Shown: positions 17,435 to 21,674 of the stretch, piece after piece
How the letters are laid out: each line of letters opens with the position of its first letter
Position numbering within the stretch: the stretch's first letter is position 1
Position numbers and translations under genes: made by a program
Assembly: GCA_963833985.1 (NCBI GenBank)
Contig: CAWIAD010000001.1
Location: forward strand, 2,816,001 to 2,880,000
DNA from: an uncultured Planctomycetaceae bacterium
GTDB lineage: Bacteria; Planctomycetota; Planctomycetia; Isosphaerales; Isosphaeraceae
Direction of reading: 5' to 3'
DNA length: 64,000 nucleotides
Notes under the pieces: model-generated
The model's database searches: none
The model's input: only the letters and a program-made list of their open reading frames with translations
Told to the model about the DNA's origin: nothing

Positions 17435-17549
17435 GTGTGAGGAAAGCTTCTAATCTTGCTTCTTCATTCGTGTAAAACCTATATTCTTGCCTCTTCATTT
17501 GTAGTAATAAAATTTATTCTTGTCTCTTCTTTCGTGGGACAAGATTCCA
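17435..17549 (+). repeat. Degenerate ~33-bp tandem REP-like array; the last unit is split by the intron and continues at 21559-21575
   Basis: Four units each start gt and contain tcttgYYtcttc. The rejoined last unit is gtgggacaagattcca|ttcttgtctcttc (GACAAGA/TCTTGTC stem). Confidence 0.7.
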
Positions 17550-18080
17550 GTGCGCCGTGGAAAGGTGTTGGTCTTCAGTGGGTGTAACTCCCACCCGGCA
17601 ACTGGGTCGCTCCAGCCGGTAGCTATCGGAGCGGCGGTGGAGGAGACGAAACCGTCGGAGCCTTCGAGACAGATGTGTCGCTTGGCGATGCAGCGAACCG
17701 ACAGGCCGTAACGCGAGTGAACGTTGAGCAGGCCTCGAAAAGTCCAATGTGGTCGCCGACCTTGCTGGAATATGGGGAAGGCCGCCGTCGCTGGGGATGA
17801 AAGGGAAACGGTTGGAATAGGCCGCCCCACGAGCGATCAGAACCCAGCGGGCCACCGGGGTATTGACGACGGCATGTCGGCACACGGAGATCAACACAAC
17901 ACGGGAAACCCCAAGCGGTGAGGGCGCGTGACCCTCAACCGGACGCCCGCGAGGGACCGGCCGGGCTGCCTGGGGTGGCGGAGAGGCCTGTAGTACCGTC
18001 GACGCCGGGTAACTCCGGTCGAGGGAAGGGGCCTTGGTTCAAGGTCAACGCAACAAGCGGCAGACAGCCGGGAGATTGGC

Positions 18081-18779
18081 GTGAGTCTATCACCTCCACT
18101 GAAGGTCGGGAAGTTGCAGACGGCGTTGCACACCAAAGCGAAGAACGCGCCCAACTATCGGTTCTACGTCCTGTACGACAAGATTTATCGACGTGACGTT
18201 CTGGGATTCGCCTACGAACGCTGCCGTGCCAACGGCGGCGCGCCGGGGATCGACGGCCAGAGTTTCGCCGACATCGAGGCGTCCGGGAAGGAACGATGGC
18301 TGGACGAACTGGCGGAACAACTTCGTAAGGAGACGTATCAACCCCAGGCGGTGCGGCGCGTGTACATCCCCAAAGGGGACGGCAAGCAAAGGCCGCTGGG
18401 CATTCCTTGCATCAAGGATCGTGTGGTGCAGATGGCTGCGGTGCTGGTCTTGGAGCCGATCTTCGAGGCCGACCTGGAGCCGGAACAACACGCCTACCGC
18501 CCGGAGCGCAGCGCCCTGGACGCCGTCCGCGAAGTCGAACGGCTGCTCAAGACGGGGCACACCGAGGTGGTGGACGCGGACTTATCTGGATATTTCGATA
18601 GCATACCCCATTCCGAGTTAATGAAATCGGCGTCACGGCGCATCAGCGACGGTCGCGTCCTGCGGCTGATCAAGATGTGGCTGGAAACACCGGTGGAAGA
18701 AACCGACGGGAAGGGGCAGCGCCATCGAACGACCCGGAATAAAGACCAGGGGATGGGTACACCGCAAGGTGCACCGATC
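18081..18779 (+). CDS. ltrA: Group II intron reverse transcriptase/maturase, N-terminal part (RT0-RT4), interrupted
   Basis: GAPGIDG, VRRVYIPK, RPLGIP..DRVVQ, AYRPERS, VVDADLSGYFDSIPH, GTPQGAPI; the frame then runs into foreign sequence and stops at 18812. Confidence 0.93.
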
Positions 18780-20794
18780 ACGCCCCCAACAATGTTGCAA
18801 AATCGTCCCTGATTCCTGACTCTGTCATTTCCAGATCGCGGCTTCGACCGAAGTACGGGCACGGATGGCAGCCCCGACTCGATCCCGATCCAAGGCAGGC
18901 TGGCGGCCGCGCTCTCGGAGAGGAGGAGTCGACATGATCACGTCCCCACGGAGGCCCACGTTCAGTCCTCCTGTCACCCGCCACTTCGAGTTCACTCGGC
19001 TTCAGGAGCAATTGATCGCGCGTGCATATCAGGTCTTGATCCCGGTCGTTTCGCAGCGCCTGGATCGGCCGCGACCCAGCCGCAACCACGCGACTGTGGT
19101 CCACACTATCCAGTCCAAGGTCGGGGGGGTTTGACAAACCATGATCACGGACAATCTCCGCGTGGCGCTCTACGCCCGGGTTTCGGGGGAGCAGCAGGAG
19201 AAGGAGGACACGATCGCCAGCCAGCTCGAGGCGGTCACTCAGCGGATCGCCACTGATGGCTTGGAATGCGAGCCCGAACTGCACTTCGTGGACGACGGCG
19301 TCAGCGGTTACATCCTGGCCCGACCGGCACTCGAGCGACTTCGGGACCAAGCCGCCGCTGGAGCCATCGACCGCCTCTATATGCTCGATCCGGATCGACT
19401 TTCACGCAAGTATGCCTATCAGGTCTTGATCCTTGAGGAACTTATCCGGTGCGGTGTCGAGGTCGTCTTCTTGCGCAACCCCGTCGGCCGCAGTCCGGAA
19501 GCCGACCTGCTGCTTCAGGTCCAGGGAATGATCGCGGAATACGAGCGCGCCAAGATCATGGAGCGTTGCCGCAGGGGCAAGCAACACGCCGCCCGCCGCG
19601 GTTCGGTCAACGTCCTCAGCGGCGCGCCGTACGGCTACCGTTACATCGGCAAGCACGAGGGAGGTGGCGAGGCGCGTTATCAGGTCCTCGCTGAAGAGTC
19701 CCGGGTCGTGCGGAAGATCTTCGAATGGGTGGGTCAGGAACGGTGCTCGATCGGCGAGGTGTGCCGACGCCTCCGGCGCGACAGTATCCCGACGCGGACC
19801 GGGAAATCGGCCTGGGATCGCGCGACGGTCTGGTTGATCCTCAAGAACCCTGCCTACAAGGGGACCGCGGCCTTCGGCAAGACGCGCTCAGGTGAGTTCA
19901 AACCTCAACGCCTCCGCCCGCAGCGAGGCCGCCCCGAACACTCCCGGCGACCGGTCTCACGGGTTGATACATCCTCGGAAGATCAAATCTTCATTGAAGT
20001 CCCCGGGCTGGTGAGCGAAGACCTCTTCCTGGCTGTCCAGGCCCAGCTTGAAGAGAACCGGCAACGCCGTCGCGACCGGCCCGGCGGTGGCCGATATCTG
20101 CTCCAGGGCCTGGTCGTCTGCAAGCGCTGCGGCTACGGCTGCTACGGCAAGCCGACGAGCCGAGCCGCGTTCGAGGGCAAGGGTAGGGTCCGCTACGCGT
20201 ACTACCGTTGCACGGGCTCTGACGCCTATCGTTTCGGCGGGCAGCGCCTCTGCTGGAACAAGCAGATCCGCACCGATATCCTTGACGCTGCCGTCTGGGA
20301 GGACTTACGAGGTCTCCTGTCCGAGCCGGAGCGGGTCCGGGAGGAGTACGAGCGGCGGCTGCAGGGTGCCCAGGGCGGGCCGAATCAGGAGGTGGAGCAT
20401 CTCGGCAAATTGATAAATAATGTGAAAAAGATGATTTCTCGATTAATCGATGCTTACGGCGACGGGTTGCTCGACAAATCGGAGTTCGAGCCCCGGATCT
20501 CGGCGGCAAGGACGCGCCTCTCGAGATTGGCGGAGGAGCATCGACAACGAATCGGCGAGGCCGCCCAAGAGGCGGAATTGCGACTGGTGATCGGTCAGTT
20601 GGAGGAGTTCGCACGTCGCGTCTCGCAAGGGTTGCAAGAGCCGGACTGGGCCACGCGACGGGAGGTGGTTCGGGCCTTGGTGAAGAAGGTCGAGATCGAC
20701 GAGCAGGAGGTCCGCATCGTGTATCGGGTCAGTCCGTCCCCTTTTGAGAAAGGCCCCCAACAACGTAGTTCGCAACATTGTTGGGGGCGTGATC
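18776..20794 (+). mobile_element. Large-serine-recombinase integrative element inserted in the RT gene (2015 bp plus duplicated GATC core)
   Basis: Left end gatcacgcccccaacaatgttgc (18776-18798) is the exact reverse complement of right end gcaacattgttgggggcgtgatc (20772-20794). Removal restores the RT frame. Confidence 0.92.
18934..19134 (+). CDS. Small 66-aa basic protein, candidate recombination directionality or accessory factor
   Basis: Strong SD (gaggaggag) before ATG 18934; stops 6 nt before the recombinase ATG; function inferred from position only. Confidence 0.65.
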   Translation: MITSPRRPTFSPPVTRHFEFTRLQEQLIARAYQVLIPVVSQRLDRPRPSRNHATVVHTIQSKVGGV

Positions 20795-21015
20795 TCACCA
20801 TTGTTGTCCAACATCTACATGCGACGATTTGTGAAGGGATGGAAGACTGGTGGACACGAGCGGCGTCTGGTCGCGCGAATCGTCAACTATGCGGACGACT
20901 TCGTCATCTGCTGTCGCGGCACGGCCGAAGAGGCCATGACGGTGATGCGGAAGATGATGTCCAGGCTGAAGTTAACGGTGAACGAGACCAAGACGCGGCT
21001 GTGCCACCTGCCTGA
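19141..21015 (+). CDS. Large serine recombinase (resolvase + recombinase + Zn-ribbon + coiled coil); last ~73 codons read through attR into RT DNA
   Basis: LYARVS catalytic motif, DDGVSG, RPALERL, DRLSR, APYGY, ILKNPAYKG, LLQGLVVCKRCG..YYRC..C. Confidence 0.95.
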   Translation: MITDNLRVALYARVSGEQQEKEDTIASQLEAVTQRIATDGLECEPELHFVDDGVSGYILARPALERLRDQAAAGAIDRLYMLDPDRLSRKYAYQVLILEELIRCGVEVVFLRNPVGRSPEADLLLQVQGMIAEYERAKIMERCRRGKQHAARRGSVNVLSGAPYGYRYIGKHEGGGEARYQVLAEESRVVRKIFEWVGQERCSIGEVCRRLRRDSIPTRTGKSAWDRATVWLILKNPAYKGTAAFGKTRSGEFKPQRLRPQRGRPEHSRRPVSRVDTSSEDQIFIEVPGLVSEDLFLAVQAQLEENRQRRRDRPGGGRYLLQGLVVCKRCGYGCYGKPTSRAAFEGKGRVRYAYYRCTGSDAYRFGGQRLCWNKQIRTDILDAAVWEDLRGLLSEPERVREEYERRLQGAQGGPNQEVEHLGKLINNVKKMISRLIDAYGDGLLDKSEFEPRISAARTRLSRLAEEHRQRIGEAAQEAELRLVIGQLEEFARRVSQGLQEPDWATRREVVRALVKKVEIDEQEVRIVYRVSPSPFEKGPQQRSSQHCWGRDLTIVVQHLHATICEGMEDWWTRAASGRANRQLCGRLRHLLSRHGRRGHDGDAEDDVQAEVNGERDQDAAVPPA

Positions 21016-21394
21016 GGAGACGTTCGACTTTCTGGGTTATACCCTCGGCCGGAACTACGACCGACGAACGGGCCGATCCTACATAGGGTCACGCCCATCG
21101 CGGAAGAAGATCATTCGGCTGTGCAGCGAGATCAGTGCGATGACGACGCGCCAGACCACTGGACAGGACGTCGAGATGCAGATTGGTCGGATCAATCGCA
21201 AGTTACGCGGTTGGTCCAACTATTTTCGCATCGGAACGGTGAGCCCAGCCTATCGCCAAGTCAACCACCACGTCCGCTACCGGGTACGTCAGTGGTTGTG
21301 TGCGAAGTTCAAGGTGCCGGGTCAGGGGCTCAGACGCTACCCTGACAGATACCTGCACCAGGAGTTGCATCTTTACCAGCTGCAACGAACCTAG
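20795..21394 (+). CDS. ltrA: Group II intron RT/maturase, C-terminal part (RT4-RT7, X/thumb; no endonuclease domain)
   Basis: SPLLSNIYM, YADDFVI, LTVNETKT, FDFLGY, LRGWSNYF. Confidence 0.93.
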   Translation, partial: SPLLSNIYMRRFVKGWKTGGHERRLVARIVNYADDFVICCRGTAEEAMTVMRKMMSRLKLTVNETKTRLCHLPEETFDFLGYTLGRNYDRRTGRSYIGSRPSRKKIIRLCSEISAMTTRQTTGQDVEMQIGRINRKLRGWSNYFRIGTVSPAYRQVNHHVRYRVRQWLCAKFKVPGQGLRRYPDRYLHQELHLYQLQRT

Positions 21395-21674
21395 CCGCGA
21401 TGGTTTCGTGAGCGAACGTGTGAACTCAACCGATGAGACAAGCCTTGTCCGAAAGCTGGATGCGGGAAAACCGCCCGTCCAGTTTGATGAGCGGGGTGTG
21501 GAAACGAGGCCCAGCCGAGCCATCGACTCGAGCCCACCGCGCCACACCTCGACTCTACTTCTTGTCTCTTCAATGATTATGCGCGCTACCGGCAAACGAC
21601 TACGGGATGCGCAAGGCGAGTGGAGTCATTCCTGTTTATGATTGCCATCCTGCTGGCGACTTGCAGGCCTTGCT

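Follow-up and report, generated by a model that had tools for sequence, protein, structure and literature searches.

What has split the reverse transcriptase (RT) gene of a group II intron between its motifs GTPQGAPI and SPLLSN in the genome of an uncultured Planctomycetaceae bacterium, and is the interruption an accident, a switch or the work of a specialised element? We analysed a stretch of 64,000 nucleotides of this genome, referred to here as the window, and followed its features (Table 1) into the rest of the genome and into other bacteria. A preliminary description, made from the sequence alone, had reported the split, an insert holding a 66-residue ORF and a large serine recombinase, and an uninterrupted 432-residue RT upon joining of the two halves. 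The ORFs and the collinear Pfam profile pieces bear out the first two of these points, and the third agrees with two empty copies of the intron that encode the same RT. We consider it very likely that the insert belongs to a widespread and as yet undescribed family of serine-recombinase insertion sequences that target retroelements; its members would be selfish parasites that move through a circle and with the aid of a directionality factor.

Table 1. Features of the interrupted intron and of its insert (window coordinates).
Feature	Position	Strand	Basis
Group II intron with insert	17550..21558	+	Rfam domain matches; limits of likeness among 11 genomic copies
RT 5' half, 233 aa, C-terminus GTPQGAPI	18081..18779	+	Pfam RVT_1; collinear with the intact 432-aa RT of empty copies
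Left terminal inverted repeat (GATCACGCCCCCAACAATGTTGCAAA), read as attP-type half-site	18776..18801	+	Repeat search
Mobile element, between two AT crossover dinucleotides	18777..20793	+	11 copies with identical ends; 44 anchored loci
Small ORF, 66 aa (upstream ATG at 18865 would give 89 aa)	18934..19134	+	Conserved family-wide
Large serine recombinase	19141..21015	+	Pfam Resolvase, Recombinase, Zn_ribbon_recom
ORF that begins in the element's right end and reads in frame through the RT 3' half (MRKAPNNVVRNIVGGVI, then SPLLSN...)	20744..21394	+	ORF list
Right terminal inverted repeat, encoding recombinase ...QHCWGRD	20769..20794	+	Repeat search
RT 3' half, 199 aa and stop, SPLLSN...YADD and maturase domain	20795..21394	+	Pfam; empty copies

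The host sequence is a group II intron, having both the ribozyme domains (Rfam, in the window: group-II-D1D4-4 at 17576-17716, 98.9 bits, and an Intron_gpII domain V/VI match at 21451-21533, 41.2 bits) and an ORF with RVT_1 and GIIM domains (Pfam). Its termini, 5' GUGCG and 3' ...CUCUAC, were placed where the 11 genomic copies cease to resemble each other, giving a length of 4009 nt as found and of 1994 nt minus the insert. The RVT_1 profile is divided between the two RT pieces, positions 1-124 of 205 matching the left piece (E = 4.5e-17) and positions 126-205, together with GIIM, the right piece (from 20795, SPLLSNIYM...YADD). Past GTPQGAPI, the RT ORF reads through 11 more codons inside the insert. 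At the other junction, an ORF that runs from the element into the RT 3' half is predicted from the letters, because the end of the element mimics the target. Two uninterrupted copies of the intron are present in the same genome (C2:1391310-1393313 and C2:2152275-2154278), each with an open 432-residue RT and each with the exact empty site that had been predicted, gcaccGATCtcacc.

The insert is an insertion sequence-like element with four parts, namely two inverted ends, a gene for a small conserved protein and a gene for a large serine recombinase. The element proper comprises 2013 bp (18779-20791) and is bordered by AT copies at 18777-18778 and 20792-20793, one unit measuring 2015 bp; an identical layout is found in 44 anchored homologous loci. 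A repeat search returned terminal inverted repeats of 26 nt with 96% complementarity, which are absent from the preliminary description, and a terminal core, ACGCC(C/T)CC(A/T)ACAATGTTGCAAA, is kept in relatives down to about 50% recombinase identity. The ends of the element copy the GGNGGNGTG-AT half of the target, and the right end, when read in the RT frame, gives ..NIVGGVI, a mimic of the target's GGV-I codons. In its size, its two genes, its inverted ends and its presence in 11 copies, the element has the features of insertion sequences in general.

The recombinase core is 551 residues long (19141-20793) and has no stop inside the element, so that at this locus 73 flank-encoded residues are added. 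The Resolvase domain is matched with an E-value of 2.6e-29 (Pfam, matches to E 0.01). Across 18 diverse family members, neither the residues R13, S15, D85, R86 and R89 nor the zinc-ribbon cysteines C327, C330, C357 and C371 vary. With a catalytic domain bearing the Ser/Arg/Asp set, a Recombinase domain, a zinc ribbon and a helical region, the protein has the organisation of a large serine recombinase. Its closest solved relatives are the TP901-1, SPbeta SprA and A118 integrases (3bvp, 9dxh, 4kis), and the family profile aligns with SPbeta SprA and A118 integrase over residues about 129-525. Annotation pipelines label such genes only 'recombinase family protein', fused to tails encoded by the flank, for example by RT or sulfatase genes.

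The small ORF ends about 10 nt ahead of the recombinase start, and its product is conserved across the family, with a core of FEPxRLxxxxLxxAYExLVP in which R22, Y32 and P37 are invariant. Searches of Pfam and the PDB returned no relatives of this protein. In the modelled complex, it sits on recombinase residues 374-406 and 490-536 with an ipSAE of 0.63, compared to 0.00 for the best of three controls; the ipSAE mark that it passes is met by 116 of 157 solved complexes and by 2 of 215 mismatched pairs. The runs share at least 69% of contacts, and the pLDDT of the partner is at least 57. The model places the small protein at the base of the recombinase coiled-coil, where a directionality factor would bind; it is probably a recombination directionality factor, for which the modelled contacts make it a candidate. 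We rejected the idea that it is a copy of the recombinase alpha-E region, with which it has ..RL..AYQVLI in common: hhalign gave a probability of 6%, and the 19-of-20-nt DNA repeat behind this likeness is confined to the close lineage of the window.

The source genome (two contigs, 10.16 Mb) contains 11 full copies of the element at 99.95-100% identity. Seven of these lie in the RT site, two in the same site in inverted orientation and two at sites other than RT; the RT is broken in nine of the 11 complete intron copies. At the same RT junction, a further intron copy, itself degraded, holds a fragment of an element variant that is only 81% identical. With intron parts at 95-97% identity, this copy speaks for an independent insertion by a diverged relative.

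These copies also help to define the core. The preliminary description had noted that GATC is common to both junctions, and this holds at the locus in the window, but at the two copies outside RT genes only the AT of the flank is duplicated (..ggC[AT]CACG...CGTG[AT]Ggtt). In the source genome, AT borders the element at either end in the RT site and also in one of the sites outside RT. Most of the 44 anchored loci have equal flanking dinucleotides (mainly AT/AT, and also CT/CT, AC/AC, AG/AG and CG/CG), which fits the expectation of a 2-bp serine-recombinase exchange, and the integrated element thus appears to have a 2-bp core on either side, as serine recombinases would leave it. Many junction pairs, although a minority, are unequal (AT/AC, CT/AT, AT/GC, and AT/TT in the source genome). 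Such pairs are not tolerated by a classical phage integrase, and either a mismatch-tolerant exchange or later mutation must therefore be assumed. Among 66 metagenomic ends, the core is AT in 38 and GA in two.

Further evidence for the target comes from relatives of the element. We assembled 79 homologous loci with recombinase identities of 42-97% from Planctomycetota, Chloroflexota, Pseudomonadota and other phyla, complete genomes included. A split RT half adjoins the element in 52 of them, in both orientations (51 identified by tblastn or junction motif, with L081 left out, and L085 by its anchored junction), and in 21 of the 23 loci with at least 75% recombinase identity. RT halves split between PQGxx(I/V/L) and SP flank homologues down to about 45-50% identity, in several phyla and in diverged introns, as the earlier reading of the insert as a hyperparasite of retroelements had foreseen. 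In Singulisphaera acidiphila DSM 18658, for example, a homologue with 82% identity (L018) is inserted in an RT. The host introns fall into at least four Rfam structural classes, with intron RNA matches in 14 of 19 loci tested. The RT targets comprise 28 unique sequences, 14 in forward and 14 in reverse orientation, and the positions conserved among them are those fixed by G-T-P-Q-G-G..S-P.L.N. One metagenome-assembled genome (MAG) carries elements that are 96-97% identical in two different RTs, which are 52% and 36% identical to the RT of the window, and in a sulfatase pseudo-site. In metagenome contigs, 50 of 66 unique ends with the exact 23-nt terminus adjoin an RT half, which is the PQG side in 22 cases and the SPLL side in 28. 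Of the 103 C-terminal tails that could be read in close homologues, 76 derive from RT (49 in forward and 27 in reverse orientation).

The specificity for the RT site is strong, yet not absolute. Occurrence of close homologues at unrelated sites had been named beforehand as a finding that would speak against such a target; most homologues do lie at RT genes, but two of the 11 genomic copies, 16 of the 66 metagenomic ends and 27 of the 79 loci are without RT, nine of the latter having less than 700 nt of flank on both sides. Whole distant subclades are inserted elsewhere. The element was matched in six of 13 other genomes of the genus and in one of 11 from other genera of the family, and a search of 16 genomes belonging to other families of the class gave no match, a patchy distribution as expected for an insertion sequence.

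From these data we infer the following course of events. Excision by the recombinase most likely releases a circle in which the ends of the element are joined across a 2-bp core, usually AT; the head-to-tail joint would then read ...GGGGGCGTG-AT-CACGCCCCC..., the two inverted ends serving as half-sites of an attP-like site. The circle would integrate by a 2-bp staggered exchange into the quasi-palindrome GGNGGNGTN-AT-CTCNCCNCT(G)CT(G)GCNAAC, a sequence that in group II introns encodes motif 4 of the RT, PQGG-x-(I/V/L) followed by SPLL(A/S)N. Since the core is palindromic and the ends of the element are identical, insertion takes place in either orientation. The small protein, acting as a directionality factor, may allow one compact element both to integrate and to excise. 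As a target, the RT motif combines conservation, multiple copies and horizontal mobility with being dispensable to the host, and insertion there places the element in the ORF loop of the intron. Occupied introns may still splice and be copied with RT supplied in trans, carrying the element along.

The expected head-to-tail joint was not found in Logan contigs of four runs, and a 30-nt head-to-tail probe matched no metagenome contig; molecules of this kind seldom survive in contigs. Skip joints in the Logan contigs of the four runs were short-sided and at other coordinates. One candidate circle joint (L121) was discarded: a variant right end adjoins a canonical left end there, so that two different elements lie in tandem or one is nested in the other.

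If the element were excised precisely at AT, the RT would be back in frame, with a product such as the empty copies exhibit, and a directionality-factor-like partner is predicted to be encoded. All of this would also suit the proposal, made in the preliminary description, of a reversible ON/OFF switch, in which programmed excision of the element would regulate the RT and hence the splicing and mobility of the intron, much as skin/SpoIVCA or SPbeta/SprA act on sporulation genes. We regard such a switch as improbable: the element is multicopy, with two copies outside any RT, patchy among relatives and inserted in either orientation; split tblastn matches reveal frameshifts in many homologues; nine of the 11 introns are knocked out; and the interrupted gene is part of another selfish element rather than of a host developmental pathway. 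The Logan contigs of the four runs contained no excision product.

A synonymous SNP located 17 nt from the core (the R17 C variant) is common to all seven forward-occupied introns and absent from the two reverse-occupied and the two empty ones, so that the local copy number may in part reflect spread of an occupied intron. Domain IV of group II introns tolerates cargo, and two intact RT copies would be available in trans; it is plausible, if somewhat doubtful, that intron retrohoming contributed to the copy number in the source genome. A very different claim is that there is no target specificity at all, and that a single chance insertion was multiplied by retrohoming with RT from the intact copies. 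This we consider highly improbable, given that the same codon is occupied in 28 diverged RTs of several intron classes and phyla and in both orientations; these diverged targets argue against RT flanks that arose only by copying of occupied introns. Evidence in the same direction comes from the MAG in which near-identical elements occupy two unrelated RTs, from the inverted copies that share this site in the source genome, from the 81% variant at the same junction and from the SNP patterns of element and intron, which are partly incongruent in the source genome (few, partly conflicting sites). Misassembly can practically be dismissed: although both contigs of the assembly begin inside this repeat, showing that repeats troubled the assembler, the two-contig assembly holds 11 copies with clean, identical junctions, the same junction architecture recurs in dozens of unrelated assemblies including complete genomes, and contigs from public runs, possibly of the source sample, span both junctions without differences, as the preliminary description had asked of reads.

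Among known systems, the element recalls the TnpX/TndX elements of clostridia (Tn4451, Tn5397), where a large serine recombinase is likewise the sole mobility enzyme and a 2-bp core is present at both ends; the family profile finds the catalytic domain of TnpX (2mhc, E = 6.3e-10). Excision of TnpX/TndX elements yields a circle whose joint resembles the target; several targets are tolerated, the core is GA, and long perfect inverted ends are lacking. They measure 6-21 kb and carry cargo, whereas the present element has 2.0 kb, 26-nt inverted ends and AT as the core in most loci, together with a small partner gene and a target that codes for a protein motif in retroelements. According to PMC10083194, the multi-targeting clade of these elements typically carries DUF4368. 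This domain was not found in the recombinase of our element, in which Pfam (E up to 0.01) identified only Resolvase, Recombinase and Zn_ribbon_recom.

The set of catalytic, recombinase, zinc-ribbon and coiled-coil domains is that of gene-interrupting elements with a serine integrase and a directionality factor (SPbeta SprA/SprB, skin SpoIVCA and A118/TP901-1-type phage integrases). As in these elements, insertion is within a coding sequence that precise excision would restore, and a small partner is predicted at the base of the coiled-coil. Those elements, however, are prophages or prophage remnants that occupy host genes in single copy; their attP arms are distinct, and their orientation is fixed by a non-palindromic core. 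In the present element the two arms are identical and the core is palindromic, insertions are found in both orientations, the size is that of an insertion sequence, and the target of its multiple copies is a gene of another mobile element, with two copies lying outside RT.

IS607, whose small serine transposase TnpA has an N-terminal helix-turn-helix and often comes with TnpB, is an insertion sequence moved by a serine recombinase, and its type of catalytic domain is distantly related (matches to 3ilx and 6dgc). In the abstracts of PMC6188088 and PMC4058570, IS607 TnpA is described as having an N-terminal DNA-binding domain and as being without zinc ribbon or coiled-coil, and the element as having no terminal inverted repeats and minimal target specificity. 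Our element differs from this type in the domain order and size of a large recombinase, in its inverted ends and in lacking TnpB, the only other ORF being the one of 66 residues. In its use of a conserved, multicopy and dispensable safe haven, it is comparable to R2 in rDNA, to IS1111-attC elements and group IIC-attC introns in integron attC sites, and to insertion sequences in REP, but the enzymology differs. No description of the element or of its target was found in the open-access literature searched.

To our knowledge, no case has been reported in which the coding sequence of a group II intron RT motif is used as a target, and the element would be the smallest self-contained one known to be built on a large serine recombinase. 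It would add a family to the short list of insertion sequences moved by serine recombinases, and would be a DNA transposon that has specialised in the codons for a catalytic motif of retroelements, and so looks like a parasite of a parasite. Antagonism of this kind would add a layer to the ecology of mobile DNA, one by which populations of group II introns could be limited or reshaped. It would also offer a natural example of a dimeric recombinase that reads a protein-coding motif, as the Gly-Gly...Ser-Pro codons form a quasi-palindrome. The recombinase of 551 residues, its partner of roughly 66 residues and half-sites of about 25 bp make a compact candidate tool for integration and excision.

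A broader reading, to which as a whole we give not quite an even chance, would unite minimal serine-recombinase elements across phyla in one old superfamily that hunts other mobile elements, with ends that are molecular mimics of a coding motif conserved in the prey. Most lineages would prey on the motif-4 codons of group II intron RTs, knocking out the RT while riding on occupied introns that are copied in trans; a built-in directionality factor would make each insertion reversible; and some lineages would have been re-targeted to conserved motifs of transposase genes. Three of the homologues (L071, L075 and L076, the last of which was not scanned for domains) share one site, and an IS256-type transposase (PF00872) lies beside both L071 and L075.

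The insert that splits the reverse transcriptase (RT) gene of a group II intron in the window is most likely an IS-like element that relies on a large serine recombinase for its movement and has specialised in the motif-4 codons of group II intron RTs. Its anatomy, copy number, empty site, preference for this target across diverged RTs, occurrence in both orientations and conserved partner gene could all be observed. The ORFs, the two Pfam-matched RT halves and the Rfam intron domains agree with the preliminary description of an RT interrupted by an insert with a small ORF and a recombinase, to which we add the inverted ends and the finding that the recombinase ORF has no stop codon within the insert and continues to 21015. 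Past 18779, the 5′ ORF of the RT reads 11 unrelated codons and then stops. The unit is 2015 bp long. In the RT frame, its right end reads ..NIVGGVI, in frame with SPLLSN (ORF 20744-21394), and of the nine core-adjacent element bases, GGGGGCGTG, seven agree with the target consensus GGcGG.gtg; on these grounds, the ends are mimics of one half of the target.

Features of the split intron and its insert (window coordinates)
Feature	Position	Strand	Details
Group II intron	17550-21558	+	Starts GUGCG; Rfam matches to D1-D4 and domain V/VI
Intron D1-D4 region	17576-17716	+	Rfam group-II-D1D4-4, 98.9 bits
RT 5′ half	18081-18779	+	Ends ...GTPQGAPI; RVT_1 profile 1-124 (Pfam)
Inverted ends	18776-18801 and 20769-20794		26 nt each; 96% complementary
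Small ORF	18934-19134	+	66 aa; between the RT halves
Recombinase	from 19141	+	Pfam Resolvase, Recombinase, Zn_ribbon_recom
RT 3′ half	from 20795	+	SPLLSNIYM...YADD and maturase; RVT_1 126-205 plus GIIM (Pfam)
Intron domain V/VI	21451-21533	+	Rfam, 41.2 bits

The genome (10.16 Mb in two contigs, C1 and C2; window at C1:2816001-2880000) holds 11 full copies of the element at 99.95-100% identity and one 400-bp variant fragment at 81%. Seven of the full copies occupy this RT site in one and the same orientation, two are inverted there, and two lie at sites without an RT, reading ..ggcggC[AT]CACG...CGTG[AT]Ggttcc and ..caggcT[AT]CACG...CGTG[TT]Gtcggc. The only flank repeated at all sites is AT, with the second non-RT copy reading AT/TT; of the GATC earlier noted at both junctions, the AT recurs, but the full GATC is not repeated at the non-RT copies. 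Two uninterrupted intron copies in the same genome have exactly the predicted empty site, gcaccGATCtcacc, and in both the RT is open over the predicted 432 aa. The element would be excised precisely, via a circular intermediate. A degraded intron copy (C2:4627313-4628478) retains the right junction, and its element part is 81% identical while its intron parts are 95-97% identical, which suggests that a diverged relative inserted there independently. The sole other RT of the genome, a diverged one (C2:4725768-4726874, minus strand, 31-40% identical, GAPQGGVL/SPLISN), is unoccupied, and its would-be core dinucleotide is CT, not AT. Both contigs start within a further intron or element copy. One intron copy (C2:2143744-2149057) carries the element inverted and a second insertion of ~1.28 kb (C2:2147541-2148825) further 3′, in the RT/maturase region.

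Element ends were placed by the conserved ACAATGTTGC motif in 44 loci with recombinase homologues. The anchored loci gave 28 unique RT targets, 14 forward and 14 reverse, with the consensus GG.AC.CC.CArGGcGG.gtg[AT]cTC.CC.cTgcTgGC.AAC. Its invariant positions are those set by the codons G-T-P-Q-G-G-x-(I/V/L)/S-P-x-L-(A/S)-N, and the target is a quasi-palindrome because GGNGGN complements NCCNCC; the palindromic core and identical arms account for insertion in both orientations. Most cores are AT, as are those of 38 of 66 metagenomic ends. Other equal pairs are seen (CT/CT, AC/AC, AG/AG, CG/CG), as are unequal ones (AT/AC, CT/AT, AT/GC, and AT/TT in this genome), from which we infer that the recombinase can act on a core with a mismatch and that the new dinucleotide is then passed on with the element. 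Such an enzyme would be more transposase-like than a phage integrase. In four loci, the flanks are mirror images with the same RT half on both sides, reading PQG/PQG or SPxLAN/SPxLAN, the footprint that would be expected of recombination (inversion) between two inverted copies. Two of these loci (L021, L066) are on long contigs; the others (L026, L028) are on short contigs of one MAG and could be assembly chimeras. In locus L121 (metagenome contig MWWE01005745.1, 1420-1602), AT and a canonical left end adjoin a variant right end (..TTGTTGGAGGCGTG), apparently a tandem of two different members of the family; such an arrangement would be expected if a junction, once occupied, keeps its likeness to a target.

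The multiplicity of the element in this genome might reflect hitch-hiking of an occupied intron rather than targeting, and the evidence on this point is mixed. All 7 forward-occupied copies have C at a synonymous SNP (TCC vs TCA) located 17 nt 3′ of the core, where the 2 reverse-occupied and the 2 empty intron copies have A; the confinement of C to the forward-occupied copies suggests that these share a common ancestry. They may stem from an occupied intron copied with RT supplied in trans, or from a founder effect, and the element would ride along whenever occupied introns are copied. The other intron SNPs and the element SNPs conflict with one another and do not settle the genealogy within this genome, so that the deciding evidence is that of other genomes. 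In one MAG, elements 96-97% identical to that of the window sit in a sulfatase gene and in two RTs that differ from each other (52% and 36% identity to the RT of the window), so that hitch-hiking is no explanation there.

Specialisation on RT codons was also followed through the very many recombinase relatives in the databases, of which the best 119 non-self clusters (83-96% identical) were taken. These are named, if at all, only ‘recombinase family protein’ or ‘site-specific DNA recombinase’, and their lengths vary (538 to 923 aa) since the reading frame invariably leaves the element and enters the flank; the insertion site can therefore be read from the tail that follows the end-encoded ...QHCWGR. 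Sorted by strict patterns from the codon register with this anchor, 49 of the 119 tails derive from the RT 3′ of the site, read with a one-base shift of frame, and 27 are antisense of ...GTPQG. Another 27 are ‘other’, several of which narrowly miss the antisense pattern; 12 were not long enough and 4 lack the anchor, giving 76 RT-derived tails among the 103 readable ones in these best 119 clusters. Gene callers that run the recombinase into the flank produce artificial fusions with sulfatase or RT Pfam domains (database proteins P0003, P0004, P0080 and others).

A scan of one genome per species yielded 79 loci, with recombinases 42-97% identical, in Planctomycetota, Chloroflexota, Alpha-, Beta- and Gammaproteobacteria, Acidobacteriota, Spirochaetota and further groups, with Pseudomonas, Paraburkholderia, Mycoavidus and a Ralstonia plasmid among the proteobacterial hosts. 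By tblastn with the window's two RT halves, together with junction motifs, an RT adjoins the element in 52 of the 79 loci, one of which (L081) has an intact, unsplit RT just upstream. With L081 excluded and L085 added by its motif-anchored junction, the RT is split in 52 loci, 23 of them with recognisable RT halves on both sides. At a recombinase identity of at least 75%, 21 of 23 loci are RT-flanked, the exceptions being L016, in which a sulfatase gene is split at a look-alike site, and L024. Nine of the 27 RT-negative loci have less than 700 nt of flank on both sides. For an independent sample, the exact 23-nt terminus was used as a probe on metagenome contigs, and 80 of 98 matching stretches were examined (2 too short, 12 duplicates, 66 unique ends); 22 unique ends adjoin the PQG side of an RT, 28 the SPLL side and 16 other sequence. 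The flanks of recombinase homologues are thus repeatedly RT halves (52/79 loci, 50/66 metagenomic ends), and the proposed retroelement specialist holds as a preference across genomes, but not for the 27 loci and 16 ends without an RT. Group II intron RNA was matched in 14 of 19 loci tested (Rfam classes D1D4-3, -4, -6 and -7), and the hosts are genuine introns of more than one kind. Nearer to the window's genome, a match was obtained in 6 of 13 other genomes of the genus, 1 of 11 from other genera of the family and none of 16 searched from other families of the class; among these relatives the element is patchy and multicopy. A regulated reversible switch of the RT, the other role first suggested, has nothing in its favour beyond the restoration of the RT gene that excision would bring.

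Among solved structures, the recombinase is closest to the TP901-1 integrase catalytic domain, SPbeta SprA and the A118 integrase, and an alignment of 18 members (45-82% identity) shows no variation at R13, S15, D85, R86, R89 or the four zinc-ribbon cysteines. The small ORF is retained across the whole family, in members with non-RT targets as well, and its stop lies ~10 nt upstream of the recombinase start. Its product has the core FEPxRLxxxxLxxAYExLVP, with R22, Y32 and P37 invariant, and no relative in Pfam or the PDB. The best of 3 controls scored 0.00, and the predicted complex of the two proteins an ipSAE of 0.63, a mark that 116 of 157 solved complexes also attain, as do 2 of 215 mismatched pairs; these counts are approximate given the use of our own alignments. 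Model runs agreed in at least 69% of contacts, with a partner pLDDT of at least 57, and placed small-protein residues 9-38 on recombinase residues 374-406 and 490-536, the coiled-coil foot and C-terminal strand. Binding to the recombinase is supported, rather than demonstrated, by this model. Serine-integrase directionality factors act at this same region, and the predicted contact there makes the small protein a candidate directionality factor or similar accessory. A 20-nt direct repeat (19/20 identical) links the small ORF (window 19023-19042, ..AYQVLIP) and the recombinase gene (19413-19432, ..AYQVLIL); it is weaker in close relatives (15/20) and gone in distant ones, and profile comparison of the two proteins gave no significant match.

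In a quick maximum-likelihood tree of 61 recombinases, RT-targeting is present in every deep clade. Non-RT members are either isolated within RT clades (sulfatase, Fic, ATP-grasp) or form coherent subclades. Several distant members (45-51% identity) lie in or beside transposase genes instead of RTs. L071, L075 and L076, of one subclade, share one site; L071 and L075, both searched with Pfam, have an IS256-type transposase gene (PF00872, Transposase_mut) beside them and are inserted there in opposite orientations with differing ends. The neighbours of other distant members are IS91-type or IS200-type transposase genes: Y2_Tnp for L089 and L090, and Y1_Tnp, at whose end L048 is situated. These few loci suggest that some lineages have been re-targeted to other mobile-element genes. 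The nearest known systems in kind are the TnpX/TndX transposons, phage-type serine integrases with directionality factors, and IS607, from each of which the present family differs in defining features. Full-text searches of the open-access literature yielded no account of such an element or target.

A two-piece homologue, 77.6% identical to the Ralstonia-type recombinase, is found in the Pseudomonas putida plasmid pWW53 (locus L094, NC_008275.1 78913-80492), and pDK1 (NC_014124.1) is likewise a catabolic plasmid with such a homologue. It is annotated only as ‘recombinase family protein’ and adjoins benAB, with two more recombinase genes beside it.

The window intron sits in a palindromic repeat that serves as its homing site, ..GTGGGACACGATTCCA/intron/ATCGTGTCACTTCTTC.. 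(window 17500-17549 and 21559-21580; 10 other genomic intron copies have the same site), with the hairpin stem GACACGAT/ATCGTGTC. Since this repeat is found at many genomic places, the intron itself inhabits a REP- or MITE-like hairpin element. The AT-rich stretch 5′ of the intron (17453-17545) contains three ~19-nt direct repeats, cttgcttcttcattcgtg, cttgcctcttcatttgtag and cttgtctcttctttcgtgg, and a fourth, similar stretch sits 3′ of it (21559-21575); these may be remnants of repeated target hairpins.
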